Below, piece by piece: positions 7,601-57,471 of a stretch of DNA of 64,000 bases. The notes beneath the pieces are model-generated. The model had not been told where the DNA came from and did not search any database. It saw only the letters and a program-made list of their open reading frames with translations. This DNA comes from Convolutriloba macropyga (taxonomy: Eukaryota): the NCBI RefSeq assembly GCF_964194025.1, contig NC_134476.1, forward strand, positions 29,512,001 through 29,576,000. The letters are read 5' to 3'. The position numbers were made by a program, and so were the translations under genes. Numbering within the stretch: position 1 is the first letter of the stretch; each line of letters opens with the position of its first letter.

Positions 7601-10600
7601 TATGACCTCTGCCAATTAGCTTTGCGTTTTAACTTAGTAGAGCTTATTGACTATTTTCTGCCTGTTTAGGCGAATACCTATGCATTGCAAACATAGATGT
7701 GTCTTGTTGGCCATAGATTAGTGGACACTATAATGGAGCTATGGCAATATAAATTTGGTGGTTGGGGTATAATAGGAAAGTCCGAAAAGGGGCATGTTTC
7801 CTGGGTCAACGATATTAGGAGAATGTAGTTGACCGGAGTCTTGTTTAGACACAAAGATCGCTGGCCGAGCTCTTCTCTGAGCTCTCATTCAAACAACCAG
7901 GCCTGCAAACGTCCTTCACGACTAGTGCCAATACCCAAAAGTCCCTAATCAAGAACGGTGATAAACTCCTGAGTGCAATTCGATTCTTTATCGATTCCCT
8001 AGACACCCTTGTTAACAAAACTATCCAAGATACAGTTCTAACTGTCAAGCAGTATCAATCAGCCAGGGTTCAGTTCGATGCATACCGCAATGAAAACGAG
8101 CAACAAGCACTCCAAAGCCCAACAATGGGCTGTACTCCAAATGGTGCTGGCGTTTCGTCCCCAGCGACTGGGACAATTCCGAACTCGGCCTCGGATAATA
8201 ATTTGGAACAACATAAGTCGAGATTTGAGTTGCTGCATAGAGACGTTGACATAAAATTGAAGCTTCTGGATGAGAACAAAGTGAGAAATGTTCAAATGTT
8301 TTGTTGCTATCTTGCAGAGGTATTTCTCTGGAAGTATCATGACGTCTGGGTATCAATTCACGCTCAATTTTGTTACTGTAGTCATTAGTGAGATTTTCGC
8401 TCAGTAGGATTTTTGTGGTCGTCTAGATGAGAGCGTGTGATTATGGTTCTTTAGACTGTGGTCTCAACTTAGTTTGGGGTCTTGTTATTTGCATAATTTC
8501 CTCATTGGAATCTTAAATGCCATCATGTTTAATTGCCCTCAAACAAAGTTTAGCAATTATTAATTGCTCTCAAACGAAGTTTGTAGCAATTATATTAGTC
8601 ATGTCGGTTTTATGCAATTTTTCGCTTGATCGATCCCCCCCCCCCACCCAGATCAGCCCTCCCCTCACTTCACCCTATCCCGCAATCTCCACCCCTGTAT
8701 ATCGTTCTGACCATAAGGGCCACATGCAGCCAAAAACCGCCCCCACACCACTGTTGCCCCTTATGAGCCCCCCGGTGCACCCCCTCCCGCTGCGCTCACC
8801 TCACGCCCCTTCCATTAAACTAAAGCTAGCCTCACTATACCTTGGCTAGCTAGTGACAAAACCAACCGCTCGCCGGTCGTTTGAGAGCAATTCGCCCGAC
8901 GTTTGTCGCTTATGTTATTAGCCCTGTTGGTCTTTTTTGTGCGCTTTCTGCCTTGACCTATCTGACTATTATTTCGTCTGACTCATTTGACCTATCGTCC
9001 TCATTAAGTTCTCTTGGAGACTTTCAGCTCCCTAGTCTCCCAGATATGAGATTCACAGAAACTGTATTGGAGACGTATACTCATGTTGTGAAGGGCGGTT
9101 CTTGGAGTTAAACCCTCCCCACACCCCACACACACTTCACCCCTCTGTCACATCCGTCCCCCTTTCTTCATACCCCCAATCCCCACCCATGAACATTGTT
9201 GCCCCCCTCTGTTGTAGCAGTTCCATTAAATAGCTCTAAATTATCAAGGATAGTTGCAAGGGATAATGAAGGGTTGCAAAACTGCTGAAAAAGCGTTTTA
9301 AGGGCAAAATATTAAAAAAGCTCAAAATGGCTCCGAAAAAAAGTCTTATATTTTTGGTCAGATGATCAAAAACGTCACCAAAGGCACTAATACTGGTTTA
9401 CTTAGTTGGAAAAAAAACACCTTTGTTTATTAAAGTTGAGTTAAAACTACAAACAAACTGCTTTGAAAAGACCACACGTAATTGAAATCCGCTCGCTCAG
9501 CGAAAGCTCTTTCATACCTACTTTTCGCGCTCTCTCTCCCTCTCAGAATAATGAATGAAAGAAAACAACCCTAAAAACAACTAAATTTTTGACTTTTGTC
9601 CATCAGATGGACCTAAACACTTTTCTTAAGGTGAGCAATTTTACTGCCTCGAAAAAGCAGCCTCTAATATAGAAGCCACCGACTTAAAAATTTTATCGCT
9701 ATTACTCTTCTTCGAGTCGTATAAATTCGCTTCAAGGCTGGTGGTTTTTTGGCCGCATGTGGTAATTGTGCTTTGATTTTAATTATTTTAATATCCGAAA
9801 AACGATAGCACGGGGATGTTATTGGTCTTTTCTTGTTTTATACAATTCAAAGAGCGACGCTGTCAATTGTATTGGGAAGCTGTCGTTTTTTTAATAGCCG
9901 CGAAGCGATAGGGTCATTATTTTGGATATCGTGGTTTTTTTAAATTCGTCGTCTCCATCGATTATTCTTGCGACCATTGATTTTTTCAATTTCAGTGACT
10001 TGTACTGCTTTGCAGTTAAAATTGTGTGCGTGACGTCATTTGTTCTTTTAGGTCAATTGCGTGACTTACCTCCTTGAGAAAAAATGACTTCTGAACTCAC
10101 TTAAAGAACTTTGAATTTTATGAACATTTACTTGTTAAAGGTCAATAGTGTGCATCTAAGTAGTGCCAAACGTATGTGCCCTAATTCTTGAGTATAAGAG
10201 TCTTGATTTTTTTATTTAATTTTAATTTTAGTTCAAAATTTTAATTTTGAAAAGCTCTGAGGATTTTTTCTATTTAGAGCGTTTGTGTCTCATATAATGA
10301 CGGTCCGAATCTAACCCAAAAAGTCTAGTGGTCTATTAAAGGACTGGTGGTCAATCCGTCTATCTTATTTTTTTAGTTGTTTCAATTATACAGAAGGCCA
10401 CATGCATCTATAGCGGCTATTTTCTGGCAATCTGCGGGCTATGTTGATAACTGTTCACACATTTTCATGATTTTTGATGTTAAATTGAAGTGATGTTTTT
10501 GTCACGCCGAAACAGGAAGTGGAGCGAAAAAGCGAGTGATTTTGTGGCGTGAAATTGTTCACTGTGATTCTAAAAGGGAGTGGGGAAAGCGGTGTTTGAA

Positions 10601-12384
10601 CAAAAGTTTGCTTTCTCGATGTCGTTTTGTTCACATGCGGCAATTTGACTTGATTTTTGCTGTTTTTTCAACTTTGATGACCTTATTTTCTAAATTGTTT
10701 TCCCAATCCATTCATCTTTTCTTAGCCTAGTTTTTTGTTTAGTGAACGAAAATTCTTTTGAATTGCTATGTCTGCTATGTTTTTTATTTTTTCGTCGAGA
10801 TTTTTTTGAACAATATGACGTCACAATCACCTCGAACCTTACTTTTCAATTCGTTCATGCAATTTGACTTGAGCTGCGTGCGTGACGTCATTTTTCACTG
10901 TTTGTGGTAAGTTTTTTTTTGTTCATTCGGCTGATTAATTTTTTTTGTCACACGTGACTTTACCTCACTCTGAAGATTGAATTCCTCACTCTGAAATTGA
11001 CTTTAGTTGAAAGAGATAAAATCAAGGGAGTTTGTGTCCTTCTGATTGAAGTTTGTTTGAGAGCAGATAATAGAAGGAGCAATAAGTTAAACACAATTAG
11101 TTACATTGTTTATCAAAATATAATATCTCAGCATTTAATGAAAAGAAGTTTTTTTAGTCTGCTTCTTTTTATCTTTTTGAGACTACAGACCTACGAAGCT
11201 ATTGCGGCTATGTTCTGGCATCCTGTCAGCTTTATTTGATTTTCGTCACGGGGGATATATAACGGTGGATATTATCCGCCAATTTGCAGGCTGTTTTGCC
11301 ATTTTTCCGCATGCGTTATTGGCGCAATTCAGTGCTTCGTAATTCCAAATCTTATTGTACACAAGAGTTACTTAAATTCTTGTCTATTCCAAGTCTTAAA
11401 TGTGGCATAGTTATAGTTGCATATCTTGCTATCAGCTTCTTGTTATGTTTCGCAGTCTTGATGTTACTTATCTCTTTTAAAAAAAATAGGGATCAAAAAT
11501 TTGATTGGGGACATCTGCCTGCCTGGAGGTTGATGATTTAGCGAATTAAGTTGGTTATTGTTAGTGTTAAATTTAATTTTAATATAATTGAAAGCCATAA
11601 GCTATTTACCAGTCGCTTCTTTATGATACAGTTTTGCTATGGGTGTCTCTTGCATATGGTTATTAATTGCTCTCAAACGAAGTTTGTAGCAATTATATTA
11701 GTCCTGTTGGTCTTTTTTTTATGCGATTTTTCGCTTGACCGATTTTTCGTCTGACGCTTTTGACTTTTCGTCCTCAAAAACGGGATAAACAGGTAGCGCC
11801 CAGCGGGCATTAAGTACTCTTAGAGCCTTTCAGCTCTGTTTCAGCTCAAACTGTTTTGGAGACTTATACTTATACTTATGGTGTGAAGGGCGGTTCTGAG
11901 AGGTTGAGAACCCCCCCCCCGTTGACCCCCATCCCCACCGCGCTGTTGCCCCCCCCCCCCCAACCCAGTGTTGCCCCCATCAGCCCCCAGTGCACCCCCC
12001 CCCCCCCCGTTGACCCCCATCCCCACCGCGCTGTTGCCCCCCCCCCCCAACCCAGTGTTGCCCCCAGTGCACCCCCCCCCCGTGGCTAGCTACTGACGAA
12101 GCCTAACCGCTCGCCGGTCGTTTGAGAGCAATTCGCCCGACGTTAGTCGGTTATGTTTTGATTCTTTGGCTTAATCAAAAAGCCGATCCGTTTACAAAGT
12201 TTGATTATTTCGGATCATCTTGATTTTGTTCCAGCTGAAAGTGATGACAAGGCAACTCAGTCTGTTGGAAGCAGCGATGGCCTCATTCATGTCTGGGAAT
12301 GCAGAAGAACTAGACTCAGTCATAAAAGAATTTAAAGTCAAAGTTACAGAACCAGTACCGCCTTCGTTCCTGGAATTGCGCTGA
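1545..12384 (+). CDS. ARFIP: Arfaptin (AH/BAR-domain protein), about 335 aa; coding exons 1545-1662, 6997-7154, 7426-7575, 7849-8280, 12235-12384
   Basis: Joined exons keep phase and read WSINTYKCSKQ|VLNEKLGRTTKTVD..HMYNLLQ|TQRSLAELF..KNGDKLL..LVNKTIQDTVLTVKQYQSARVQFDAYR..DVDIKLKLLDENK|LKVMTRQL..PSFLE, colinear with arfaptin-2 ([48 protein letters not shown], PSWLE). Confidence 0.93.
1842..1994. mobile_element. MITE with about 28-bp imperfect terminal inverted repeats, TA-flanked (Tc1/mariner-like)
   Basis: tatagtcagtcccataaagttgcaacgc at the left vs gcgttgcaacttaatgggacttactata at the right. Confidence 0.7.
4880..5800 (-). mobile_element. BEL/Pao LTR retrotransposon relic (integrase fragment, possibly RNaseH fragment) in arfaptin intron
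   Basis: Minus strand 5590-5700 reads F*LD*FGPYSVKIGRS**KWCCLFTCLT, matching the BEL integrase GLDYFGP..VK.GR...KRW.CLFTC motif; multiple stops. Confidence 0.6.
6340..6940. repeat. Local tandem duplication (about 210-bp unit) inside a dispersed repeat; a related inverted copy lies near 60760-61060
   Basis: cctcgtgtcagggtactaagtccctcgg...gagaacttttctttc at about 6413 and 6623, partial at 6889; agagaaccaaagggtacgaa and tatagcggtttgatt at about 60807 and 60951 are reverse complements of sequence at 6330 and 5960. Confidence 0.75.
6997..7154 (+). CDS. ARFIP: Arfaptin coding exon 2
   Basis: tttcag acceptor; encodes ..QKIANLKVWSINTYKCSKQ; ends CAG|gctagt (GC donor). Confidence 0.88.
7426..7575 (+). 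CDS. ARFIP: Arfaptin coding exon 3
   Basis: ttgtag acceptor; VLNEKLGRTTKTVDPDMEKKIETL..HMYNLLQ; ends CAG|gcaaga (GC donor). Confidence 0.9.
7849..8280 (+). CDS. ARFIP: Arfaptin coding exon 4 (AH domain core)
   Basis: tttag acceptor, 144 open codons, AAA|gtgaga donor. Confidence 0.93.
8529..9210 (+). mobile_element. HINE/DINE-1-like family A: one copy (8560-8916) nested inside another
   Basis: Two successive 5' ends (taattgc[c/t]ctcaaac..agcaattat), a 3' end gtttgagagcaattcgcccgacgtttgtcgcttatgtt, then resumption of the outer copy (attagccctgttggtc). Confidence 0.7.
9891..10445 (+). mobile_element. HINE/DINE-1-like family B non-autonomous element
   Basis: 5' ttaatagccgcgaagcgatag; 3' subterminal inverted repeat gcggctatt followed by hairpin ctggcaatctgc.gg and atgtt; colinear with 41478-42021. 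Confidence 0.7.
11661..12158 (+). mobile_element. HINE/DINE-1-like family A element with internal C-rich minisatellite
   Basis: 5' subTIR aattgctctcaaacga, 3' subTIR tcgtttgagagcaatt, terminal hairpin ccgac-gtta-gtcgg, T-rich ends; duplicated C-rich unit at 11912-12082. Confidence 0.75.
12235..12384 (+). CDS. ARFIP: Arfaptin terminal coding exon
   Basis: ttccag acceptor; LKVMTRQLSLLEAAMASFMSGNAEELDSVIKEFKVK..PSFLELR*. Confidence 0.92.
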   Translation: MKVMTRQLSLLEAAMASFMSGNAEELDSVIKEFKVKVTEPVPPSFLELR

Positions 12385-15119
12385 TGGTTCGATCAAAGCA
12401 GAAACCATTGACGGACAAATAATGGGTCAAATTGCACAACTGATACCATCAACAGCTTTAACCACAAAGATTGTCATCATTGATAATAGTGATACATACC
12501 TAACGCAGCACAAATATCTACAAGAAAGTCAATAATGCTTGTACTACTGTATCATAAGGCAGCTTCAAAATCTCACTTAGTAATTGTTTCCTGCATTGTA
12601 TGTGCAACTATGCTGTATTACCTTTGCGGATTATTTAAGCATATCACAACTTTTGTAAATTAAATCAATTTGACCTACCATAATGCTTCTATTTATTTGA
12701 CTTCTAAATATTTTGAATTTTATTCAACTAATAGAAATGGTTCACGACTTACAACCCACGCACAACACGTCTACTTTGAAACTTGAGTTCGTCAAGATAA
12801 CTGCATAGCTAGCGCAAAGCCTTCTGATGTAGTAAAATTGACACAAAAATCAATGTCTTTAGAAAATTAGCTGATATTCGCTCCGAGTGGTATAACGAGA
12901 TTATCAGCGACTGATGTGGGTAAGGTTGTATGTTGCTTCATGGGTTAATTTGTCAGTGATGTATGTATAAATATGGTAACTTTAGTTTTATAAACTACTT
13001 TGATGGTTTTGTTTTAATTTTGACCATTCATTAAATGTGGAATTCTTTTTGTTTTAGTTGAAAATCTATAGTTCTGCTGATTGTGTCGCATTTCCGAGGG
13101 GTTAATAATTACTTTTTATTAATCTTCTGGAAATATTGTTTAAATTTTGCAAATTGTATAATTTCACTTAGCTTTTGTCAGGTTATGACAATAATAATCT
13201 GTCAATAATATCCAGCTCATTGTATTTGAAACTTTTTAAGCCCCAGAAATCAAATATTTTGGCGTGGGTAGAATTTTTTATAAATTGCATTGGAGTGGGG
13301 AAAGATTTCTCAGAAGAGTTAAAGTCCGCGTTGAGCTTTGTGAAATTGTCTTGTTTTTTTGGGATCGTTCGTCGCCGATCCAAAACTTCTAAAAAATTTT
13401 AATAGAGATGTTCTTATTCAAATCGTATTTTTGCGGCACTCATCTCCGAGAGCCCACATTCTGAAATATAAAACCCAAATTGCTAAGGAAATTTCTGATT
13501 TTTAGATTGCAATGTTTTCCGCGACACTTTTTGACAGTTTTGAACAGTTTTGTGCTTGAGTTTTTAATAGCCGCACAGCGATAGCTGGGGCTGTTATTGG
13601 CCTTCTCTTGGTTTTTTACAATCCAAGAATTGGATTGTATTAGTGCTCTGTCTTTTTTTTGTAAGATGTTTTCGCACCTTTTTTCATGACTTTGAGCTTT
13701 CAAAACGGGATAAACAGGTAAAGCTCAGCGGGCATCAAGTTTCATTAGAGGCCCTTAGCCGCGTTTAGTAGTTCTTCAAGTACTCAGAGTGGTGAAGCTA
13801 TTGGGAAGGCCGTAATTCAAGGTTAACAGGTCATTTTCAGAAGTTTTTGAGCCCAAAATGTTGCAATTTTTTCGGATTTTTTGTTGGACCAGTCTGAAAT
13901 TGAGGTTTGTAAAAGTTGGTAAAGGTCTTTTGCAAGACGTAATTACTTTTTATGGCCATTTTAAGAGCTATATGTATTGCTACAGCAAACATAAACACGG
14001 TAATTTTTTCTAATTTTTGAAATTTTTTCAAGTTTTTTGAATATTTTTGTTGTTTCAGCTCTTGGGTGTCACAATAATAGGTTATTTTATAGTTTCTAGC
14101 GGTAATGGAATGGTTTTCAACTTCACGAATTTTACCAATTTTTTTTGATAAAACTAGCAGTTTTTTCCAATTTTCTGACATTAATTGTCTTTATTAAAGT
14201 TTTCCAATTTTCTGACATTAATTGTCTTTATTAAAGTTTTCCAGCTCCAGGGGGCAAGAAATCTCGACTAGGATTTGCTAATATTTTAATGCAAAATTTT
14301 TATTGGCCATGGCATAAGCCAATTTTTTTCAAATTTTTGAAAATTGTCAAATTTTAGGTTTCTCTAACCTGAATAGCCAAAATATTTCCTTTAGGTTTTG
14401 ATAATAGGTTACTGCATAGTTTCTAGTGGTAATGGGTGATGTGTTTCAAGATTTTAATATTACAAATTTTAGCGATTTTCAAATTGTGATTTTTTCTTTG
14501 ACTTCCTGAAATTTTAGTCTTTTTCCTCAGTGGCCAGGGGCTTGCTGCTATTGAGTTTGCTAGTATGTTATTGCAGAGCTTGTAGTGGCAACAAAATAGT
14601 TTTCTGTTTTTTTAAATTGCAAATATAAGTGATTTTTTAAAATAAAGCTTGCAATTTAAATTTTTTTGTTTTCAAATTTTTTGAGTTTTTTTGTCATATT
14701 TTGAGTCTAACTATCTTTATTGGCCAAGAAAACTTTCTAAATGTTGCAGATAAGATTCAAGACTGAACTCCAGAGAAAAATGAATTTGAACATTTTTTCC
14801 AGACACATTTTCGAAAAATATCTTTAAATTTTTCCTTTTCTTTTGAAGATTTTTTCACATTTCTTTTTGAAGCATTTGTCATTTTTTTCGAGATTATCTT
14901 TAGTGTCAAATTAATCTCTTTCAAGGGTTTTGCGTGAGTTAATGACTATATTGCATTGTGTCATAAATGGCCTTCAGGTTAAAAGCTTCAAGAGTTTTAG
15001 GAATAACTGTTTTTTTGTTTAGTTTGATTCTTTTAGTTTCTCAACTTTCGAGATTTCTTCTTTTTGGCTGGGATTGTTCAATTGATCTGCTGGTCAGGTA
15101 CATTAGGTCTGTTTTTCAT

Positions 15120-15970
15120 TCAATTTCTTTGGATTGTATTTCAGGACTTGTCCTGCTATGTTTTTTTATTTCGTCGTCATATTGTTGTTACGACCATATG
15201 ACGTCACAGCCACTTTTTGTCCATTCGTTCATGCAATTTCAACTGAATTGCGTGCGTGACGTCATTTTTCGGACTTAGCTGAGCGAGTCGAGTGCGAAAA
15301 CGGTGTTTGAACAAAAATTCGGTTTCTCGGTAGTGGTTTTTTGTTCACATGCGGCAATTTCACTTTGATTTTTACAGTTTTTTCGATTTTTTGGATCGGA
15401 TTTTTTTCTAAATGGTTTTCCCAATCCGTTCATAGTCCGTTCTTGGTCTGGTTTTCTGTTTAGTTAATGAAAATTCTTTGAATTGTACGTCAGGACTTGT
15501 CCTGCTATGTTTTTTTATTTCGTCGTCATGATTTTTGTTACGACCATATGACGTCACAACCACTTTTTGTTCATTCGTTCATGCAATTTCAACTGAATTG
15601 CGTGCGTGACGTCATTTTTCGCACTTAGCTGAGCGAGTCTTTTGTTCATTTACTTTATTAAAATTTTGGTCACACTTTACTTACCTCACTCACAAAAATG
15701 ACTTCCTCGCTTTGAAATTGTCTTTTATTTACTTTAATTCAAAGAGATAAGGTCAAATGGGTGACACACACCCATTTGACCTTATCTAAATGAAGGTCAT
15801 TTGAGATCAGCTAATAGAGGCAGCACTAACCTATACAGATTTTTTATCAAAATATAACATCAACCTTCAATGAAAAGACGAATTTTTTTGGTCTGTCGTT
15901 ACTGTTTTTTTTAGACTGTCGATCTACGAATCTATTGCGGCTATTTTCTGGCAATCTGCCAGCTATGTTT
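15120..15970 (+). mobile_element. Family B-related element with about 350-bp internal tandem duplication
   Basis: tcaggacttgtcctgctatg..gacttagctgagcgagtc at about 15141 and 15490; ends ctattgcggctattttctggcaatctgccagctatgttt. Confidence 0.65.
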
Positions 15971-16365
15971 TTATATTTGTCTCAACTTTAATACGAATTT
16001 TTGCACTGCAATCGGGCAAGGAAATTTAATTGCCCAGGCTCATTAAATAAAATGGAAGGCGAGCCCAAATTGATCAGCCATAATACAAATGTGAATTTTC
16101 AGGATTCAATTTTTTTGTGAGCTGATTAATTCTTCAGATTTTCATAGTACTAAATGGCGGTCTACCGCAACAAGAGATATTGACAAATGTGGGTGGCTGT
16201 TGGTAATGATGATCTTCATTAAGAGTATGCAGTTGATATGTTCCGAGTCAGCAGCTTTCAAATTCAATTTTTTTTGAATTTTTCGAAAAAATTGTCACAT
16301 CCTAAACGATGTTCTTTAAACCCTTGTTCCACCTGACGTTTTGGCAAATGTTGAACGGGTTGACT

Positions 16366-17472: not shown

Positions 17473-17864
17473 TGTGACGTTGTCTAAAGCAACAATTGAA
17501 CATTTCGAATAGTATTCCAAGAAACTATCGTTAAAGACACACTACGTACTATTTATTTAAAGTAAACACTGAACCTCACCAATTGTAAACAACTAAATTA
17601 GAGAACAGATTTATCAGCTAAAGTTAAGTTGCCATTATATCGTAACTGTAAACTTGAAAGAATTGAATAAAAGGTATAAGAACAGATACTCACTTTATAT
17701 TAATTTATCAGCTAGCTTGAAGATTGAAGGTTGTCGATCCACGCTTCTGGAGAACATCCTAAACTCAACATCTTCGTGCAGTAACCGCATGCAAGAAAGA
17801 CCACAAAACAACTGGAAGCAAGCATTACCAACCTGCAACAATACATAAATCTTGTGGCATCACA
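17473..17864 (+). repeat. 5' LTR (392 bp)
   Basis: tgtgacgttgtc...ggcatcaca; 7 substitutions versus the 3' LTR by manual comparison; contains aataaa. Confidence 0.97.
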
Positions 17865-17879
17865 TGGTGACAGGAAGGA
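17865..17879 (+). promoter_or_regulatory. Primer binding site (cognate tRNA not assigned)
   Basis: TGGTGACAGGAAGGA directly after the LTR-terminal CA; TGG is complementary to the tRNA CCA end. Confidence 0.75.
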
Positions 17880-18351
17880 AGACAACCACCATTTCTTCAT
17901 CGGCTGAAATATGGAAAAGCAGTATCTGGTGGTTTGACAGCGAAAGAAGAACAATCCTATGGAATTTGAAAGTGCTAGAAAGAAAGGCCTACAGCCAGCA
18001 GCGAACAGGTTCGTCAAAAACCACTATGTGCAATAAATTTATGATGTTTTATGAGCGCTCAGTCAAATATCAGTCAAAACTGAAATCATTTTTTTGAAAA
18101 TGAATGATGATCATGGTAAATCATTTAAAGGTGCTATTTTCTCTATTTTCATATCATCTAGCCTCTAAAATTCTGTTTTTTTGACCCTAACTCAAACAAT
18201 TAGTCTTGTTTTTGAATTCTTAGTCTCGTTAGTCTGACTTTCCACTGTCTTTTGTTGTTGTCTTCAATTTTTTTGTCTCTTAACTATAAGCGTTATAACT
18301 TTCTAAAAACAGTTTTAAGTAAGATTTTGAAAACAAATTTTCTAACGTAAA

Positions 18352-19635
18352 ATGGCACAACCAAATATTGCCTTGAAACATTACGGGGGAACTGAGAAAG
18401 AAAGTTTTCGTGAATTTGAGAGGTTACTTAGAAGTATTTTGGCAGTAGGAGGAGTTGATCCAGGTCAACATGCAAATTTTCTCCAGCTTCATCTTAAAGA
18501 TGCAGCCTTACGATTTTTTCAGTTATTGCCTGAGGCAACCAGAGCTAATTTTGAAAACAGTCTCACTGCTTTGAGAGACCATTTTTGTAACCCTCAGCTT
18601 CGTAAAATACACCTAATTAAGTTTGAAAGTGTTAAATTTGATCCAAAAACTGATTCACCGGAAAATTTCTTGGTAACGCTCCGAAATTTGGCAGTAAGAG
18701 CTTATCCTGACCCAATACCACATGTTGTTCCCGCAGCTGACCCAGCATTAGATGCAGTAGCAGAGGCCGCAAGAATAGCTGCATCTAACGCCGTAAATGC
18801 ACAGAACTTACTTTTTGCACAGACAGAGCGAGATCATCAAATAAGAAGACTTTTTGTTAAAAGTATGCCAAGTTGGCTTAGAGCAAAACTTTTGGAACAA
18901 CCGGATAACGCTACCATTGATGATCTTTGTCTTTTTGCTCGAAAACAAATTGCCATCCATAGTTTGTGTAAAATGGACGATTATGCTGACGCAGCTTTTA
19001 ACGAAGTCAGCTCAAGTACTATTTATGAGAATTTAGTAAACGCACTGTCAAAAATGTCCCAGATTCAAGAAAGTATGCAAAATCAGGTCAGCGAGTTAAG
19101 TAGACAATTTGAGGAACAGAGAGTTAGTTCAGAGAATCAGCAAGATAGAGGTCGTGAAAGAAATTTTAACAACTACAGAGGAAATAATTACAGAGGAAAT
19201 AACTATCGCGGAAATAATAATAATAGAGGAAATTACCGAGGGAATAACAACAGAGGAAACAATAATTATAGAGGAAATAACTTTCGAGGACGAAGAAATT
19301 ACCGAGGCAGAGGTAATCAAAATTTTAATCGAGGAGGAGGACAATTTACAAATCATGAATACCGAGGACCCGTTAATCATGATTATTTCAATAACCAGAG
19401 TTCGTCTAACCCTCCAATGCAGAGCTCATCTGCTCCACCCGCCCCTCAGGGGTCAGTCCAAGTTACCCCACCCCAAAATCCACAACCCCCTGACCAAAGT
19501 GGTGTGACAGGCTATACCAAAATTGTCTGTCATCTATGTGGTTTTCCAAACCACTTTGCTTCCGAATGCTACCTCAACACTAATCGAAAAAGAGGAGGAG
19601 TTAGTTTTCCATTCAGAAGAAACCCAAAAAACTAA
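18352..19635 (+). CDS. gag: Gag, 427 aa, intact: capsid-like region, coiled coil, NYRG repeats, CCHC zinc knuckle
   Basis: Retrotransposon-gag-like N-terminus (LHLKDAALRFF..L..HF), CHLCGFPNHFASEC is a C-x2-C-x4-H-x4-C knuckle; ends on an A-AAA-AAC slippery heptamer (19626-19632). Confidence 0.92.
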   Translation: MAQPNIALKHYGGTEKESFREFERLLRSILAVGGVDPGQHANFLQLHLKDAALRFFQLLPEATRANFENSLTALRDHFCNPQLRKIHLIKFESVKFDPKTDSPENFLVTLRNLAVRAYPDPIPHVVPAADPALDAVAEAARIAASNAVNAQNLLFAQTERDHQIRRLFVKSMPSWLRAKLLEQPDNATIDDLCLFARKQIAIHSLCKMDDYADAAFNEVSSSTIYENLVNALSKMSQIQESMQNQVSELSRQFEEQRVSSENQQDRGRERNFNNYRGNNYRGNNYRGNNNNRGNYRGNNNRGNNNYRGNNFRGRRNYRGRGNQNFNRGGGQFTNHEYRGPVNHDYFNNQSSSNPPMQSSSAPPAPQGSVQVTPPQNPQPPDQSGVTGYTKIVCHLCGFPNHFASECYLNTNRKRGGVSFPFRRNPKN

Positions 19636-19701
19636 AAGAGCCACATGCTATTGAAGCCAATCATCTTTTTTTAGAATAATTTTCACTAGAACCAAAATGT
19701 A

Positions 19702-20110
19702 ATGAATGGTTTTGATAATGCATGTAATTATGATAATTCTCTTGACAGTTCTTCTGATGAGGAACTTGATAACAAACTTTGTGCCGTTATACCTCTTGAA
19801 GGTGATGTCCTTAACTACGTCCGAATTGTTTTTGATGAAAAAATTCGACGTCGTGCATTAATCGATACTGGATCGTGTGCCAATGCCATTCCGAAAGCCT
19901 TATTAAATAATTTTGAAAAGTTAAATGTCAAGTTTGAAATCAAAAAACCGTGTTTTGAACAAGTTAAGCTAGCACCGGGACAGCCAGTTGACATTGAATA
20001 TGCAGTGGAAGTAGAATTTTGTCTTGGAAAAAACAAATGTTTGGACGAATTATTAGTTTTACCCAAAATGAACTGTTATTCTGGGTAACCCTTTTTTCCA
20101 AAAGAACAAG
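19702..20110 (+). pseudogene. pol: Retropepsin aspartic protease, frameshifted
   Basis: RALIDTGS active-site motif; the ILGNPFF motif continues in another frame at about 20075-20100. Confidence 0.88.
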
Positions 20111-21472
20111 TTGTGGATCTGTCCCGCTTTTAAATTACTCAAATTACCTGATATTACTTATCAATTGAATGAAATCAAACCTAAGTTTGATAGACGACAA
20201 TTTTTGCCTAAACTGAAGAAAATTCCAGTTTATCTCGCCAAAAAACATGTTTTGAAACATGCACAATCATTAGGAGTTGTTGAACGCTCCCACGGTGCCC
20301 TAAAACGTATTCTCAAGCTGAATACCAATGAGCAAAGGGCAAATTGGTATAAATATGTTCCTCTCGCTACTTATATCCATAACACCTCATTTTATTCATC
20401 AATTGGTCGTACACCTTCTTCGATTTTTCATGGAAGTGAACCAATCAAACCTCTTGATGTTCGTTTGAGTAATAGATCATTGAAAACAATGGATCCAAGA
20501 TCAGACTTTGTTATTGAACTGCAAGATGCCATGCAGGAAAAATTTGCTCACAATAAATCGAGGTTAATAAGTAGCTACCAACAGTACCGCAAGTACTATG
20601 ACCAAAAATCAGAAGCCAATCCACTGAAGCTTCATCAATTTTGTCTCGTCTTAAACCCTAAGCTCACAAACCAAAATGATTTTGCAAGCAAGTCATTGCA
20701 AGTTTGGCTACCACTATATCGTGTTGAGAAAGTTCTTACTAATTCGAACTATTTAATACGAAAAGTAGGAACCCCATTCACTCAATGTGTCCACCGAATT
20801 CGCTTGAGGCCATATGAGCCAAGCGAGCCGCCAGTAGACTTTGACAATATTGATCCAAGCCAATTTGTGCCTGAGCCAGTCTTGGGTAAATTCAGGCAAA
20901 AACCTGAACTTTTCGATAATGAGTTTCCTAAATTGTTCGATCACTCGTTCATTGACGATGTACCATCTCAAACCCCCCAACAGCTGGAAGATGAACCTCC
21001 AGCTACCACAACTTTTGTGTTCCCATTAGCCGCCCCTCATGTTCCAGCCCCAATTCATGGTCCAGCTCCGCCCCCACCCCCAATGCCGCCTCCAGCTCCA
21101 GTTCCGATGGTTCTTCCGTCACCCGCTCCACCGGTTGCTCCCCCAGTACAACCAGTAGAACAAGCAGAAGATATTAATGAAAATCATCCTCAACAAGACC
21201 AGGAGGATCAAATATTTCTGGATCTAAGAGAACCACCGGAGCCGCAAGCGCCATTGGAAGTGATAGAGGAGGAACCAGAACCAGCTCAACAGAAAGTTCA
21301 ACCGGAGTTCGAACGAGAACCTGAACCGCCTAACCCGTTCATGTTTTTTCCCGAACCAGACCCCCCAGTTATTCAACAGCCGTCTCCGAATGAAGTCCGG
21401 AGACCACAACCCCGTTTTGAATTACCCCCCCAGTCCAATTCAACCACGAACGCCGCGAAGGGTTTCATTTAA
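20111..21472 (+). pseudogene. pol: Deleted pol: protease linker fused in frame to C-terminal half of integrase, GPY/F-SH3-like domain and Pro/Glu-rich tail
   Basis: HAQSLGVVERSHGALKRIL (E of DDE), W..YVPLATYIHNTSF.SSIG.TP..IFHG, WLPLYRVEKV..SNYLIRK..VHRIRLRPY; no RT YxDD, RNaseH, HHCC or first DD motifs present. Confidence 0.88.
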
Positions 21473-21707
21473 CCCTACTGTGTCCACTAGTACTGAGATA
21501 ATTGAGACTCCGATACCACAACCTGGTCCTAGTCAACAATCCATGAGAACTATTGATGGTCCTTTTCCGCTTCCGTTTTCTCGATTTTCGAAAGAACAAA
21601 AGCGCGAAGCGATTTAAAAGTCTACACAAGATCCAACAAGACGACTTGCCTTTGGCCGAGGGCCATCTCGTGCTACTAAATTTGACAAAAAAGAGAGTCA
21701 ACGTGTA

Positions 21708-22313
21708 ATGGAGGAGCGCAAAGAACAACAACAGCAAACGTCATCGACTTCTACTAGCGCGCCTCAATCTCCAAAGCAACCATCTCCGCTACTTGATCTG
21801 ATACCAGGATCTCGTCAACGATCACGAATGAATGCCGAGCGTGAGAACGAACGCCGGAAGTCGCGTGGCGAATCAAATGCAATTTTTGGAGATAATTTTC
21901 ATCTTTACTTTAAACAAGAAGACATTAAAAAATGTCCATTTTCAGTGGCACAAGCCGTCTCAGCAGAGTCTCCGATCAAAAATCTTATAGATTTTAATGC
22001 TATAAACCCCCCTGATGTCCAATCAATCAACCCTAACTTTCAAGTAGGATCTCTAGTGTCTATTTTTGATCCACAATCCAATCGTTTTGTTTATAACTTA
22101 GTCACAAAATCTAAAGACGCTCACAAAGCATCTTACTCATGTCTTGAACAATGTCTCCAAAGTTTCAAAAAGCAGATTGATGATTTCAATATAACCAGCT
22201 TAGCCCTACCCCAGCTTGAATGCTTTGAGAATGGCCTTCACTGGCCCAAAGTCTGTCAAATTATTTTAAAAATTTTCAAAAATTCTAACCTAAATCTTTA
22301 TAGTTATGTTTAA
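21708..22313 (+). CDS. TARG1/OARD1 (Poa1p-class) macrodomain, probably the original C-terminus of pol
   Basis: RFVYNLVTKSKDAHKASYSCLEQCLQSFK..ITSLALPQLECFENGLHWPKVCQIILKIF aligns with TARG1 [58 protein letters not shown]; same frame as ORF 21390-21617 across one TAA. Confidence 0.82.
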   Translation: MEERKEQQQQTSSTSTSAPQSPKQPSPLLDLIPGSRQRSRMNAERENERRKSRGESNAIFGDNFHLYFKQEDIKKCPFSVAQAVSAESPIKNLIDFNAINPPDVQSINPNFQVGSLVSIFDPQSNRFVYNLVTKSKDAHKASYSCLEQCLQSFKKQIDDFNITSLALPQLECFENGLHWPKVCQIILKIFKNSNLNLYSYV

Positions 22314-22949
22314 ACATCATAAAAATCTAAAAAATTCGAAATTCCAAAAACATTAGCTTAGCTGTTTAGTTTTTCTAAATATTATTATCTACCACCCTAA
22401 TATCTTACCCATTCACCATTTCATTGTATTTACTATTATTTAACCAGAATTTAGACTTTGTTTGTGAAAGTCGCAAAATTTACCCCATAAAAATTGTGTT
22501 GAAAAATTGTTTTTCAGCGAAAACTCACTCTAGTATTACTTCTTTTATGTATTTTTGGCTATTCCTATCGATATCCTAATTACTATCACAGTTTCCTAAC
22601 ATTTCTTTAAGTTTTGATATAAAAACCTAAAAATTTTTCAAGGTCATTTTTCAAGGTCAAGATGACTTCTGACAAACTTTCCTTGCATCTATTTTCTATT
22701 TAACACCATTGCTATCGATTGTGACGCATTTCAATGAGATTGGAGGAAAAAATTTTTTCATCTTTTTTTCTACAAAGTCCGAAAATTACTAAATTTTTCC
22801 AAAATTTAAGATTTTTTCGCAATAACAGTTTATAAATGTTTCGGTTAAAAATGAGTTATGCGAAACCTTTTTAAAATTGTTTAAACCTATTGTCGTGTTA
22901 CTTGATTGTAAAATGAATCTGTATGACAAAAATTTTATTCATTTTGTGA

Positions 22950-24404
22950 TCACAATAGAATAATGAAATGTTCTTTTTGCTGAGTTTTCCTAACTTTTTT
23001 TGACTTTTCTGCGTCCTCACAGTCCCTATCACTCCTCAAACGCTTTGTAGCGCGAGGAAGGATTATACCATTGGCTTTACTAGCATCGTATGCGCTAGTA
23101 GATCTAAATTGTATAAAAATTAATCTTTCATTAGATCTTAAGAAACTTTCTCTTTTTCCAAACAATTATTTTGCACACAAAATATTCATAAACTAACTCT
23201 TGATCTGGAAATTCAACCAATGGCTCGCAGTGGTAACCCTGAGGTTCCTCAAAATGCTCGCAGACCAGCAGAAAAGCTGCTTGCTTGCGCTCTTGATCGT
23301 AAATCTCCCAAGGAAAGCGCACCCAAGCACTGATATCGGTGTGATACTCATAGTATACACATATATCCGTTTTCTGAAGCATGGCCATGCCAAGGAACTA
23401 AACATTTAGTTTGTTATTTTGGTTGTTAGTCAATTACTTAAAACAGCAAAAATAAAAAGTGGTTATTACCCAATAATCGCCTACGGGAAGTGGATTGTCG
23501 CGGTAATGAACAATTTCAAACGGATTAGGAGTATACCCGAGTACAGTTTCACAATGCGTTTTAAACTCCTCTCCCAGCATGTGATTTCCACATTGAAACC
23601 GTAGGGTATTACATTTTGCTTTGCGCAGACGTTCTGCTGTTCCATTGGTTTCTAAAGGAAAAACATTTAAATTCTTCGGAATAATCTGTAATATTCTAAA
23701 TGTGTGGAAGAAAAAAAATCAATTTGACCACGTGCTTGATTTTTGGCCGGTCAGCAAGTAAGACAGACTTGAAAAGATGCACTGGCCATACTCGTCTGCA
23801 AGTTTTTTGTTCCCAGTAATATCGGGAAAACCCAGAGTACAGAATCCTACAAATTTATCGCAGGGGTCATTTTTCCATCGCAGCTCGAGTTCACTGCACA
23901 ATTCCCTTTTTCTCCTTTCACCAACACTAGAGACAGTTATTGATTTTACAGCCTTGAATTCCTTGTAACACTTGTCACACCCGCGTATATACCTATAAAA
24001 TTATGCTTGTCATGTTGATATGTAAATTACAAAACGCACACAAAAACGATTCAAACAGTTGAGTTGATGATATGATGGTTCGTATACTTACTCAGTGACA
24101 GTCCGTCAGTGAAACTGGGAAGTGTAAACTCTTTTTCCATTAAAGCATCATACAGTAGCTTTTCTTGATAAATGTGCTTTCCCGACTTACTGACGTGTAC
24201 AGCCTTTAAACAATCTTCAGCTTGCTTGAAGGTGGGAACGTAAAATGAGCCCAACATTAAATTCTTTTCCTCCTCGAGAGAAAATTTAGAGAATTTTTCG
24301 TCCCAATACCGTGTGTTGTCGGATGTTATAGCCTTTTCGCGTTTGTTAAAACGTTTCCCCATTTGTAAATATCTCACTATCTTACTATACACTACTTCTT
24401 CCAT
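22950..24404 (-). CDS. Antisense spliced gene inside the LTR element: HHCC zinc-binding domain + OTU-like cysteine protease + basic NLS-like tail; predicted exons 24404-24088, 23992-~23730, ~23690-23470, 23397-23198, 23103-22950
   Basis: H..H in AVHVSKSGKH plus YIRGCDKC across intron 1; OTU-like DEYGQCIFSSLSYLLTG, MAMLQKTDICVY, W.RFP, FLL..YHCEPL; phase-consistent GT-AG introns 23469-23398 (gactaac branch point) and 23197-23104; intron 1 donor and intron 2 boundaries uncertain. Confidence 0.7.
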
Positions 24405-24606
24405 ATTAAATCTGAAAATTTTTTTTGTTTTTGCATTATTGTTTTGACATTTTTTGACTGAACGCCCAAGAATAGAAAAAACATTCTCTGAGCTAGTAAG
24501 TCGAGTAAATTAAAGTAGGAGTCAATCTAAAACAAAGGCTACAGCCTACAAATACCTAACACAAGGTAAAAAGTTTAGTCTTTAGTTTGAGTTAGTAAAC
24601 TAATGC

Positions 24607-24883
24607 TCATTCTCGCCTAAAGCATTTCTTGTAAATTGCATAGCCCACCCATGCAAGCCCAAACACAGAAGAAATAATAAGAATTATGTCAAGCACTGGA
24701 GCAGATTCCTCCCCACTGGGAGACACACACAGAGGAGGCAGCTCCTGGCTCCAAATACGAGTGCCATCAGGCACCTCCACAAAACTCCCATTGCCGCAAC
24801 AATAGATTTTGTGTGCGCAATTTTTTCTCAGTACAAGCAAAAGCGTGACTGATCAAAATGGCGACAAAACAAAGTTTCAACAT
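24607..24883 (-). CDS. Antisense small type I membrane protein (about 91 aa) with one homopolymer frameshift
   Basis: ATG at 24883 gives signal peptide MLKLCFVAILISHAFA-CTEK; removing one A of an A6 run joins NCAHKIYCCGNGS..LC..VLDIILIISSVFGLAWVGYAIY-KKCFRRE (TM plus basic stop-transfer); ttttcag acceptor 10 nt upstream of the ATG. Confidence 0.6.
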
Positions 24884-25070
24884 GATTGCAAAACTGAAAA
24901 CAATTCAAAATAACTTACCAAGAAACAGAATATTTAGTTTTACCTGAAGTCTCTCAACTCTTAAAAAGAGGAGTGACAGAAATTTAAATCTAAAACACAA
25001 AACATTGGTTAATACACATCAAAAAACATTGAAGAATTGACACCTAAAAACCTAACCTAAACCTAGTCCT

Positions 25071-27385
25071 ATGTTTAGAAATACGGTGAGGTCCAAAGTT
25101 TTACTTATATTCTGTATTCTTATTGAAGCGACGTACTCATCGGAAGTTATTGATAAGTTCGATTCAGTTTTACGCAAGGGAATATTTTTTAACGAAGAGC
25201 CGAAAATTTTACTTGCCGAGAAATTTGTCCCAGTTCAGTTTCTTGTACCATTTCCAACATATAATTTCACGCTGAAGCCTGAACTCACAAATTTATTGAA
25301 AAATCTTAATGATCGTTGGAAATTTCCATCTGTATCATGTTCACTCGACTTCGCAACTAATTTTGCATCAAACATATCATCATTTGACATCAATTGGATG
25401 CAAACCAAACTAGAATTGGAAGTCGACCAATCAAAGATTGATGTCGAATTGATTCGAAACGAAACCGCTACCTTCCTACAAACAACAATTTCAAACGGAA
25501 GATCAAAACGTGGAGCTCACGTTGGAATGTTGGCCATGGCAGGCATCGGACTTTTCGGTTCAGGCATTGCCATGGGAAGTTCTGGAGGATGCGGTCTAGC
25601 TGGTGTTTTCGGAACATGCCAAGACAAGGCCCAGACTTATGCAGCTAACATAGAACATCTGGGTACGATCACATCCATGCTCACATGTTTCGTTTCAAGA
25701 ATGAATACCGTGAATAATGAAAAATTCTTTGTAGTGAAGAACAAGCTTGAAGACATCGAGAACAATCAAAAACAGATGGAGGAGACGCAGAATAAAAACT
25801 GGGAAATAATCGAACGACAATTTGAAATAATCGACCAAAACTTCCACATTTTGAGAAACTGCGACCAAATGTTATTTTCTAATCAGCAATTGAACTTTAA
25901 CTACGACACAGCAGCCTCGTTATTATCACTTCTATTCGCTGACATAAAAGCTTACCGATCAGCTTTGTACACATACAGGATGAATGTCTTAAACGCGATC
26001 CCGACGATGCTTCAACATCTGCCAATTTCTTTAATTCCAAAGAAATCGCTGCTCGCGATAGTGAACTCTGTCGGTGATGAACTACATCGATCAGGAGAAA
26101 GACTCTCGCTTGCAATTCCAACTAACACTGATTTACTGTCGTACCACGACGCCAAGCTTCTTCGTGACGTTATTACAGTGGAAGAAGGGTTGATTCTCAC
26201 CCTTGCCATACCATTAGCGTCTCGAACGACAGCTTTCTCGGTCTACCGAGCCCATGTTATACCAATGCCTCAGTCAGGTCCTCGGATGGCCATTAGATGG
26301 GTCGTTGAAGCCCCATATTTGGCTATATCTGAATCGAAAGAGGATACAATGACGCTCTCGCAGGAACAGTATGAAGCATGTATTGGCTCGACTAGATATA
26401 ACCAGACCATGGCCTCTTACAGGAACAGACCCTCCTGCTTAGCAACCTTGCGTCTCGGATCTACACTCCGAGCAACTGAAACTTGCGACACGGAAGTCTT
26501 CTACCTACCAACCGAAGTTCAAGCAACTAACCTTGGTTATGGAATTTGGCTTTTGTTGTCGGCAACGGACAATTACGACATAACGAGTTGAGTCTTGAGC
26601 CCGCCTTAAGAGAGGAAACCCGCATCTTAAAGGGATGTAAGATTTGTCTTATAACCGTGAAATGCCAATTCCAACTTAATGTCGGGAAAAACGTGAAAAT
26701 TCGTCCGGATCTTGAAGTTTGTGACTCCATGAATGCGACGTTCATCGATGTTCAGCTACCTGACCTTTTGTCAGCACTTCTTGGAACAGTGCCAGATATT
26801 AGCGAGCTACCATTCTTTGACTCCAAAACCTCAGCAGGAGTTGAACTCATCAAGAAAGTTCGAGCAGAATTAGCACAAAGTCCAAAAATTTCAACGAGTG
26901 ACGACCTGATCAAAATAGCTCAACCAATTACAATGGACATGAGTTCTCTCAACCCATCTTTCAAGTCCTACTTTAATGAGTATGTACCCGCAAAGGTATC
27001 ATTATCGCTCACTATCGTTGTTTTCATTGGAAGTATGATCTTACACCTGATCATGTATCTTTATCACAAATGCAAAGTAATTCGGAAATATGTCCCATCA
27101 GTTTTCAAGTTTGGTGTCGACATGCCTAATGTTCGACCAGTCATGTTCATTTACCCTCCCACGACACCCAAACAACCCAACGAAATAATACAAAAACACA
27201 GTGATTCACATGTTTTTGTCATGATGTCACGCATTGATGGACGTTTATGTCCACCATATGAAGACAAGGATCCTAACAATCCGCTTTTGATATCTCAGAT
27301 CCACTTGAAATCAGACGGAAATTACCATTTGAAAACATCCCAAAACAATATAAATCAGAACACCCCAAACAACAGACAACCCTGA
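25071..27385 (+). pseudogene. env: Envelope / class I viral fusion glycoprotein (baculovirus F, errantivirus env, paramyxovirus F-like layout), split by one frameshift near 26580
   Basis: Signal peptide VLLIFCILIEATYS, furin site RSKR followed by Gly-rich hydrophobic fusion peptide GAHVGMLAMAGIGLFGSGIAMG, heptad region, Cys-rich region, C-terminal TM VSLSLTIVVFIGSMILHLIMYLY in ORF 26546-27385, N-glycosylation sequons. Confidence 0.88.
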
Positions 27386-27992
27386 AGGTCTGCTTCATCA
27401 ATAACTGTCTCCATTGATCCTAATCATCAAAATGATTCACGACTACACTCGCAACATGTCTCCCTACAAACCATCCCGAATGAACAACTAACTATCCAAA
27501 CTGATCAACATTCACCAGCAGGTGAAAACTCCGAATCTAACCTCTAGTGCAGTGAGCTGTAAAATAAAATGTAGTATACTCTCTGACGAACACCTGCACC
27601 TTTTCCGATACAATTCTCTACAACCAGCAGCTGTCGATTAACGCAACGATCAAATATGCGATTCTGACTTGGCTCTAACACACACCAATTTTGACCCACC
27701 AAAATTACTAGTTAACTCTATGAACAACACTCGACAATTTCGATCCCCACAACTTTTACTTCAATGATATTCCCATAACCGACTTCTAGTTTTCTACAAC
27801 ATGTATCACTGTTACAATATGTATTCTATCAATGGCTCCTGGCATGATGGCTCGGCTTCAATTTTGACTATTTCTTATCTCAAATGATGCTATTCTCAAT
27901 TATCTTCTCTACGTTTTATATCTCGACAATATTTATTGCTTTGGCACAAAAATTTTGGACAATAAAATTTTTATGTGTCCGGAAGCTTCTCT

Positions 27993-28004
27993 AAAGGAGG
28001 GGAG
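27993..28004 (+). promoter_or_regulatory. Polypurine tract
   Basis: aaaggaggggag directly before the 3' LTR. Confidence 0.9.
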
Positions 28005-28396
28005 TGTGACGTTGTCTAAAGCAACATTTGAACATTTCAAATTGTATTCCAAGAAACTATCGTTAAAGACACACTACGTACTATTTATTTAAAGTAAACA
28101 CTGAACCTCACCAATTGTAAACAACTAAATTAGAGAACAGATTTATCAGCTAAAGTTAAGTTGCTATTATACCGTAACTGTAAACTTGAAAGAATTGAAT
28201 AAAAGGTATAAGAACAGATACTCACTTTATATTAATTTATCAGCTAGCTTGAAGATTGAAGGTTGTCGATCCACGCTTCTGGAGAACATCCTAAACTCAA
28301 CATCTTCGTGCAGTAACCGCATGCAAGAAAGACCACAAAACAACTAGAAACAAGCATTACCAACCTGCAACAATACATAAATCTTGTGGCATCACA
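28005..28396 (+). repeat. 3' LTR (392 bp)
   Basis: Direct repeat of 17473-17864 followed by AATAA TSD. Confidence 0.97.
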
Positions 28397-35132: not shown

Positions 35133-38100
35133 AGTTTGAAGCGGTTGAGTTTGCTTTCCCAAACACAACTGATCAGTGTAATTCTGTAGACTTGATATTT
35201 CTATAAATTTATCCAAACGTCAATTTTGATCTTACATACTGTGGAAACGTCGGGATTGACTGTTTACAGAAATTGGATCCATTTTGCTGTCTCCGCAATC
35301 TTAGCTAGCAAAATCACTTTTACGACCCCAGTGAATTGTTTTGGCAAGAAATGTTGTACATAAGAAACATACCGCTTCATCACGAATGAAATTAGAAATT
35401 ATGCATTGAATTTTGTTTTAGAATGCCTTATTAAAGTTGAAGAGTTAGCGTTTTGGCGTAGTAGTTTTGTACTCTTCAAAAATTACGGAAATGGATGCTT
35501 GAGAAGTCAGGTCGTTTTGCTAATTTAGATAGGCTTCAAGTGTCGGCTTCGTTTTAATTTTGCCTCGGTTCGTTTAATATTGCCGTTGCACTAATCAAAC
35601 CGTACATGCTAAAGCTGTTGTCTAACTGTTAACGTAAATCTGGTACTTTGGGGTTGAATTAATGGCGGAATTGGTTTCAATTGGGGTTTCAAATACATTG
35701 CCGGCAGAATTTGGAAGTACCTGCAGTGATTACAACGCCACTTTGCATTACAGCAAGTTCTAAAGTAAAATTTTGTTTACTAATTGAGCTCTGAAGATGA
35801 CACGGGAAAGGTCGCGAGGTAGAAAGAGAGGAACAGAAAAGTGCAACGTCTCTGCAAGGAAGTCTAAAAGTCAAGATGTACCCATCAATTATGAAGGAGG
35901 TAAATGCACTTTCAATTGAGTTTAAGTTTTAGCTTAGATTTTATTTACTACCCATTGTTAAACCATATAGAAAATTATGTTTTATGTTTTAAATGGTTGT
36001 TTTGGGTTAAATTAGGCTGGATACGACTTGAAAATAAAATGAATCGTGTTTTTTGCTCCTGAATCATGTGCAATTGAAAAGCGTGTGAGCAGTGATAGTG
36101 AAAACTAGATCTTCAATGTTTATTCACCATGCCCCCTCCCCCAAAGCCATGACCTTGTCATGAAACGTTCAAATATGCGAAGGGGAAAGGGCCCGAATTA
36201 TTGTTGTGTGTGCGGCGTGCATAATAATGTAGGATGGCTATGTTATTGTGGGAGACTACAATGGGACAAAATGGCAATGTGCATTAATCGATTTAAAAAC
36301 TGGTTTTTCCGTCAAAAGTAAGAGGCAGCGGAGTGAAGCAAGGAAGAGAGGGAGGAGCAGTAGGGAGGCGTGGCTCTCGTGAAGAGGGAGGGGTGGAATT
36401 AGTTGCTACCAACAAGAGTCACTCTCTGACACCCAATCGCACGGTCAGATTCAACAGGTCCACCCATGCTCCTGCTATCCATACTTTCCTCAATCTTTTT
36501 CTCTCCTCGGCGCACCTGCTGCTTTACTATCAGTAATTAGTTAATGGGAATGGCACATGATCTGCTGTATATGACCTCTGCGGGTTATTGTGTAGCTGAT
36601 TGTTGAGCGCTGACTATTACAATTATTATATGCGATTGAATAGGTGCGAAATTAAAATTGTATATGGGCAAATTCTTCTGGTGCAGGGGGGGGGGTTAAA
36701 GTTAGGGTTAGGGGGTAAATTTCCAACGGTGCTGGTTAAGAATTTAATTACTGCCTTTTTCACTTGATATCAAAATGAGACAGAAGACTAGGAATATTAG
36801 AAAATGTATATTATAAATTAGTGGCACTCGCACCTGCTAATGTAAAATAAAGTAATTGCTAGCTAAGTGAGTAATGTACGGAAGTGTTGCTTTAACAAAA
36901 GTTATCCATGGGAGGGAGTTTGCAGTTTGATCTTTTTTCAAACAGGACAAAAATTAGTGACTCCTCCAGCGTCTTCCAATCTTTGGCCCCTTTGCCTAAC
37001 ATTGCAGCGGACGCAGTTACTAACTCCTCGGCCCCTCTAGTGCAGAGCTTGAAGGCCACCCTGGACCCCCTAAGGAGTTCTGTGCCTCAGGGACTGCCGC
37101 GGAATCGCAACTTTGCGGCAAAGTTGCCAAAAATTGAGAAATTACGCAGGAAACAGGAAGCTATCTGTGCTCTCCATTTTAGGTTGACAAGTATTCAGTT
37201 TAATTTCTTAAAACCTGCTTAGGTGAACAACAATGTTGTTCGACAATTTCGAGGAAATTATTTGATCCGAGTGACTGAATGTTCGTTTGGTTTGAATTTC
37301 ATTAAGCGTGATGATTCTTTTAATTTGATACGTTTTATGTGCTTAAATTTTTCTACAAATTATTTGGGCCCGGTTGGTCTTTTTTGACGCTTGATCGTTT
37401 TTTGCGACTCGAAGAGGAGTATTGGAGAAATTCGTTTTAACAACTCAAAGATGAGCTAATGTGATTAATAGTTCTTAAACAAAGTTTTTAGCAATTATTT
37501 TGGCTCTGCTGGTCTTTTTTGTGGGATTTTTCGTACTTCGACATTTTGCAACAAAAGTAAACTTAGATGCTAATCTGCCTGTTTTTGAAGAGCGTTGTGA
37601 ACTGGAGAATTACCATGAGCAAGTTGAACAGATTTCAATGTGGAAATCAACCTGCAGGTTTTTTACCGAAAACTCGAATTTTTATGTGGCTTTTCTTTCT
37701 AAGCGTTGGCAACAATTCCCTCCATTTGCAGTTTATTTATATAAAATTTACGGATTTTGGAATGTTACAGAAAATTTTAGATTATGTAATTTTGCTGTTT
37801 ACGTTTGTTAGCGAGTGTTGTTTTTGTCTGACCATTTGGAATTCGCATCCTCAAAAATGGTAGAAACAAAAAGCCTGGAGTCCTTATGTCGCTAATCAAG
37901 TCTTTAAGCCTTTTCTAAGCATTCAATTCACGGAAGCTGTGTAGGACAACTTCATTTTGTGAAAAGCTGCTTTTAAAATTTTGTCCCACTCACTTCACGC
38001 CTCTTTCAACCTAAGCTCCGACTAGCTATTGACAAAGCCACCCGCTCTTCAGTCGTTTCAGAGCATTTCGCCCGCCGTTAGTTTGTTGAACTCCTTTTTT

Positions 38101-57419: not shown

Positions 57420-57471
<52 letters not shown>

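Follow-up and report, generated by a model that had tools for sequence, protein, structure and literature searches.

What does a macrodomain do at the end of a retrotransposon polyprotein, and does it act there as part of the integrase? The question is raised by a 64,000-nt stretch of the Convolutriloba macropyga genome (hereafter the window, to which all coordinates refer), in which an earlier note had placed a TARG1-like macrodomain at the C-terminus of an integrase, the site where chromoviruses carry a chromodomain. Our answer, which we hold with slightly more confidence than doubt, is that the domain is a captured ADP-ribosylhydrolase, probably cut free from the integrase, which is likely active in the sister branch within its Pol lineage and survives in the branch of the window as a folded pseudo-enzyme under relaxed selection, and that it is not a chromodomain-like tether.

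The element and its macrodomain

The pol gene bearing the macrodomain lies within a complete LTR insertion at 17473-28396 on the forward strand, the parts of which are collected in Table 1. A 5-base target-site duplication, AATAA, precedes the 5′ LTR, which is followed by a primer-binding site starting with TGG. Because the Pol of an unbroken relative, P0005, has the order protease (PR), reverse transcriptase (RT), RNase H (RH), integrase (IN), and because its best PDB match is Ty3 Gag-Pol (E 4e-46, with foamy virus second), we assign the insertion to the env-bearing Ty3/gypsy elements. The protease region of the window aligns to the part of P0005 that has a weak Asp-protease match.

Table 1. 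Features of the LTR insertion in the window
Feature	Position	Strand	Remarks
5′ LTR	17473..17864	+	392 nt, TG...CA; 7 mismatches in 392 against the 3′ LTR
gag ORF	18352..19635	+	RGNN-type repeats, C-terminal zinc knuckle, position in the element; weak zf-CCHC match (E 0.07)
pol protease region	19690..20254	+	frame break near 20070-20090; 67-69% identity to P0005 aa 47-234
Integrase C-terminal half	20255..20960	+	86% identity to P0005 over 228 aa; Integrase_p58_C E 0.005
Pro/Glu/Gln-rich linker	20961..21869	+	about 300 aa; 57-62% identity to P0005, 6 internal gaps
TARG1/DarG-type macrodomain	21870..22313	+	runs to the pol stop
Candidate protease site x-N-A-I	21873..21884	+	just before the macrodomain; polar first residue, imperfect match; same place as FNAI, VNAV and LNSI in relatives
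Antisense open frames	23437..24509	-	inside the element; one motif reminiscent of OTU proteases
env-like class I fusion protein gene	25071..27385	+	signal peptide, RSKR site, fusion peptide, TM; broken near 26530-26590
3′ LTR	28005..28396	+	392 nt, TG...CA; polypurine tract before, AATAA after

The copy in the window is dead. An internal deletion of about 1,025 pol codons, absent from the earlier note, joins the protease region in frame to the C-terminal half of the integrase near 20255, removing what corresponds to about aa 235-1260 of P0005, that is, RT, RNase H, the integrase H2C2 zinc finger and the first half or most of the DDE core. Together with frame breaks in the protease region, the linker and env, it leaves a copy that makes neither integrase nor macrodomain. 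Two of the lesions had been reported before, a C7 run at 21425-21431 and a TAA at 21615-21617, and both are present; alignment to P0005 bears out a frame change between about 21411 and about 21438, with the TAA inside the aligned stretch, but its exact site falls anywhere within 21412-21440, so that the C7 run is a plausible rather than a proven location. Assembly error is not a favoured cause, since a single 5,617-base contig, found in two of the four sequencing runs (possibly of the source sample), spans 19457-25073 with 0 differences, and the breaks that it covers are not obviously assembly errors. Six runs are listed as containing the sequence, none of them from RNA.

Two further contigs, both from runs X1 and X3, concern the wider family. 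One links the end of gag straight to the env region (window 19589-24989), and a pol-less gag-env derivative of the family thus exists; the other, of 9.7 kb, matches integrase, macrodomain and env piecewise (window 20560-26332) and represents a diverged family member whose genes are arranged alike. Between protease and RT, P0005 carries about 300 aa (aa 190-500; lost from the window copy beyond about 20255) that have no Pfam match, part of which may be a degenerate dUTPase fold. Elsewhere in the window (8800-16000, 38000-44400 and 53000-64000), there are several families of dispersed repeats, 70-230 nt long and in 2-5 copies, that are probably small non-autonomous elements.

The env-like protein, which has no match in Pfam and none by sequence in the PDB, scores 0.95 in Atlas to clusters with PF00523 Fusion_gly on 26-33% of their members (paramyxo-type), Baculo_F being lower at 0.91 and 0.89. 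The antisense frames have no Pfam, NCBIfam or homologue match, and their best Atlas score (0.81) is to an unnamed cluster, with OTU at 0.77. They show apparent splice-like signals and a flat single-copy depth, and contain one stretch reminiscent of an integrase-type H..H/CxxC zinc motif and another reminiscent of the catalytic motif of OTU proteases; they may be an accessory gene or inserted DNA.

The macrodomain itself is readily related to human TARG1 (phmmer E 4.8e-9), whereas its Pfam Macro score of 19.2 bits stays below the 22-bit cut-off, and routine annotation therefore misses it. The earlier note had begun the domain at 21390; its identity is upheld by phmmer and by fold, but it starts at 21870, the preceding part belonging to the Pro/Glu-rich linker that the note had also recognized. 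An AlphaFold2 model built from 50 sequences, mostly canonical, reached a pLDDT of 91.5, and Foldseek ranked TARG1 first (E 1.7e-11, TM 0.80) and DarG next, with VIA-align superposing 132-138 residues on TARG1 (Z 19.2, rmsd 2.1-2.5). This model confidence rests on the canonical relatives: built from 7 branch sequences alone, the model was poor (pLDDT 54.5), with TARG1 and DarG still top-ranked. The closest known proteins by sequence and by fold are thus human TARG1 (OARD1/C6orf130, ALC1-like class) and bacterial DarG, with which the window domain shares the core and the equivalents of K84 and S35; it differs from them in being part of a retroelement Pol, in the replaced pocket residues of its branch and in an identity of only 21-23%.

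That the macrodomain ends the integrase polypeptide, as first proposed from the broken copy, is borne out by one unbroken ORF in its relatives. A search for longer proteins retrieved P0001, an RT-RH-IN-macro protein with a macrodomain 65% identical to that of the window, the cluster of which holds P0005 and P0006, two 1,943-aa Pols with PR-RT-RH-IN-linker-macro in one ORF. A profile search gave 33 matches among 7,999 candidates, including P0164, P0170, P0173 and P0174, Pols of the same lineage that are 71-75% identical to P0005 over the RT thumb and RNase H. Three sister clusters have 37 listed members, of which 24 extend as far as the C-terminal region of the integrase; 19 continue from there into the macrodomain, and the other five stop early at scattered places. 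The fusion is therefore real, and a separate macrodomain gene was rejected. Of the 150 matches listed, those to Cadherin and Cna_B proteins are repeat artefacts, and none of 19 pattern matches in viral contigs was confirmed as a relative.

The ADP-ribose pocket in two branches of one Pol lineage

Residues were numbered after TARG1 by means of the PDB alignment, with an offset of 6 that puts G43, I44, K84, G123 and D125 at their published places. In the window, LVTK (its K at 22107-22109) aligns to TARG1 LITK, ECFEN (22218-22232) to GCGLD and SPIKNL (21969-21986) to the MGAGI loop, exactly the three correspondences that the earlier note had given, MGAGIA being the loop as then written; the equivalents of K84 and S35 are retained, and those of G43, G121, G123, D125 and H32 are replaced. 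These substitutions recur in diverged relatives, which suggests that the domain is indeed catalytically altered. In the window branch, where the window and four rows of a single cluster are nearly identical to one another, Gly is found at G123 in 0 of 7 sequences and at G43 in 0 of 7, Asp at D125 in 0 of 6, Lys at K84 in 8 of 8 and Ser at S35 in 7 of 7, with E/D at the position of G121 in all eight. The sister branch, by contrast, keeps G123 (26/26), G43 (24/29), D125 (24/25) and K84 (27/29), much as do the 122 other matches (112, 102, 112 and 118, respectively); G43 lies in a gapped loop, and its alignment column is less sure. P0037, P0026, P0182 and P0187 were left out of the motif table by the length/score filter.

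In the two glycine columns of the window branch, the residues are bulky and vary (F, L, Q, S and I, K, T, A for G123 and G43, respectively), whereas the adenine-pocket Asp is retained and an invariant Q, E and E are new in the pocket loops. In the sister branch, I44 is replaced by L, and the adenine-pocket Asp is mostly N, which tempers the case for its activity. In TARG1, for which K84 and D125 are described as the catalytic pair (PMC9967889), G43E, I44E and G123E each abolish ADP-ribose binding and activity (PMC5928194). Judged by these mutants, the window-branch domain has probably lost ADP-ribose binding, and the sister-branch domain is a likely active ADP-ribosylhydrolase. This undercuts the two roles that the earlier note had offered, a reader tethering the integrase to ADP-ribosylated chromatin and an ADP-ribose decoy, since both binding glycines are absent from all seven branch sequences that cover them. 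A third suggestion, that the domain blunts PARP responses at integration sites, suits the pocket-keeping sister branch better than the branch of the window.

In a quick macrodomain tree, the four window-branch rows form a clade (SH-aLRT 99) on a long stem (0.99), nested in a larger clade (97) of 42 rows that takes in every one of the 28 sister rows, which argues for one capture followed by remodelling. The backbone of this tree is mostly open, and of the gypsy elements the trees cover those with a macrodomain; the label of P0184 as another gypsy element is to be ignored, as it is without any retroelement domain. Conservation within the window branch tracks that of the family (rho -0.41, p 1e-6, 132 columns), the exceptions being the two glycine columns, which vary freely, and the window macrodomain has no indels against P0005, compared with six in the linker. 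The fold is thus maintained in the window branch under relaxed selection. Identity to P0005 is 65% for the macrodomain, 57-62% for the linker and 86% for the integrase (60, 44 and 75%, respectively, in a sister pair), and because the value for the macrodomain is hardly above that for the linker, slow decay is also compatible with these data. The predicted pI of the window-branch domains is neutral (6.6-7.6), whereas that of the sisters is basic (8.8-10.4). TARG1 binds RNA outside its pocket (PMC5928194), an activity that the difference in pI makes less likely for the window-branch domain than for its basic sisters.

Position in Pol and a candidate cleavage site

TARG1-type domains also occur in three further gypsy RNase H lineages and at several places in Pol. 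The macrodomain follows the integrase in P0070 and P0228 and RNase H in P0116/P0231 and ends an IN-RT-RH Pol far from the integrase in P0230 (source name Nucella lapillus), whereas P0086 (source name Athalia rosae) has two macrodomains between RNase H and integrase. Two additional matches, P0152 and P0148, have it behind gag or gag-protease-like sequence. These macrodomains scatter in the poorly resolved tree, which suggests separate captures. The first macrodomain of P0086 (aa 618-751) is canonical and the second (aa 906-1042) degenerate, an independent pseudo-macrodomain in a gypsy Pol. Outside retroelements, the DNA ligase III-like proteins P0107, P0185, P0186 and P0183 have a canonical TARG1-type macrodomain inserted before the BRCT domain.

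In both branches of the Pol lineage, a short motif (FNAI, VNAV, LNSI or VKAI; SNAI in the window) stands 8-9 residues before the first TARG1 strand, even though the linkers of the two branches are only 24-37% identical. The pattern hydrophobic-N/C-A/S-I/V/L, which was chosen post hoc after the sequences had been seen, occurs four times in P0005 against 1.1 expected: where PR starts, behind RNase H, and ahead of both IN and the macrodomain; a looser version has seven places, three of them away from domain edges. It fits the V/I-polar-polar-V/I profile of Ty1 protease sites, which have V/I at P2/P2′ and polar residues at P1/P1′ (PMC6952103). The motif is absent from P0070, P0189/P0228, P0086 and P0101, and the AlphaFold2 model draws its residues as a strand of the domain. 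On balance, release of the macrodomain from the integrase by the element protease seems reasonably probable.

The nearest parallel for this placement is found in chromoviruses such as MAGGY, which likewise have an extra globular, host-derived domain after the integrase. Here, however, there is no chromodomain (no Chromo match at E<=1 in P0001 or P0005), the domain is set off by a 300-aa linker with a cleavage-like motif, and domains of the same type occur at other Pol positions. The analogy with chromodomain placement, from which the earlier note had started, is weakened accordingly.

Explanations and wider setting

We favour the following scenario. An ancestor of this env-bearing Ty3/gypsy family would have taken up a TARG1-type ADP-ribosylhydrolase at the end of pol, where relatives carry it in one ORF. 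There, it would be made together with RT and IN and packed into the particle, and the element protease would probably free it as a protein of ~145 aa, as the motif suggests. RNA-virus macrodomains erase host ADP-ribosylation, and by analogy the sister-branch domain, with its full pocket, most likely erases host ADP-ribosylation of element proteins or nucleic acids. In the window branch, the phosphate loops were remodelled once, as the shared substitutions and the long stem show, and the domain would no longer bind ADP-ribose, to judge from the TARG1 mutants, persisting as a folded pseudo-enzyme. Any use of the pocket-dead form would lie in a surface that binds proteins, and a role in protein contacts is our preferred guess.

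Were the domain instead a functionless vestige, its decay slower than that of the linker only because the polyprotein would suffer from an unfolded tail, its divergence at almost the pace of the linker and the drop in pI from the sisters to the window branch would both be expected. Yet a stop after the integrase would drop such a domain at no cost, the domain is full length in sequences only 32-67% alike, and branch-specific surface-loop residues are invariant, so that we regard this account as unlikely. The invariant new pocket-loop residues, together with the kept K84, S35 and adenine-pocket Asp, count against our favoured scenario in another way, as they could belong to a remodelled active site, in which the Lys and the new acidic residues would serve a different substrate, such as another NAD-derived adduct or a modified nucleic acid end. 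DarG works with the Lys and apparently without the TARG1 Asp, and Lys, Ser and an acidic residue (E/D) at the G121 position are present in every branch row that covers them; the varied bulky residues at G123 and G43, however, indicate released constraint rather than a new site, and a Lys in a core strand is conserved anyway, which makes a remodelled enzyme or binder quite unlikely in our view.

Very unlikely, finally, is a domain that stays on the integrase and guides insertion to chromatin bearing ADP-ribose or other marks, or one that soaks up ADP-ribose. A flexible linker does lead from the integrase to the macrodomain within one ORF, both in the lineage of the window and in a second one (P0070, P0228), and targeting by a chromodomain is established for MAGGY (bioRxiv 10.1101/2021.11.30.470311). 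Against this stand the loss of the binding glycines, the cleavage-like motif before the domain and the presence of the same domain type after RNase H in the IN-RT-RH Pol P0230 and between RNase H and IN in P0086. For the sister branch, a tether is possible.

The architecture is real and widespread. Macrodomain ORFs in LTR retroelements with env have been reported for fish epsilon-like endogenous retroviruses (Basta et al. 2009, as cited in PMC4977317); there, they are additional ORFs in Retroviridae, whereas here the macrodomain is the terminal domain of a Ty3/gypsy Pol, a placement for which we found no report in the openly readable literature. RNA viruses likewise carry the macro fold in polyproteins (alphavirus nsP3, coronavirus Mac1, and TARG1-like domains in virga-, negev- and flavi-like viruses and in Kadipiro virus VP8), and the nearest viral models reach a TM of 0.75-0.81; the present case differs in involving a retroelement with a DNA integration step and the TARG1 rather than the MacroD class. 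Degenerate viral forms have precedent, as all but a few viral TARG1-like homologues lack one or more of the essential residues (PMC4245714).

These parallels suggest that retrotransposons, like RNA viruses, are armed against host ADP-ribosylation. As a tentative and rather doubtful extension, animal Ty3/gypsy elements may have repeatedly captured TARG1-type erasers as an additional, protease-released Pol product that undoes host ADP-ribosylation of their own proteins or cDNA ends, which would reveal PARP-based restriction of retrotransposons, and the window branch may then have turned its copy into a pseudo-enzyme acting on a host factor through protein contacts. Macrodomains of viruses are a sign of an arms race with host PARPs, and the occurrence of TARG1-class domains in no fewer than four RNase H lineages of gypsy elements, at three Pol positions, suggests that invertebrate hosts and their retrotransposons are engaged in the same race. 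Moreover, within a single Pol lineage, enzymes that are otherwise 65-75% identical bear either an intact or a pocket-dead domain, and such a matched pair brings the question within reach of a test.
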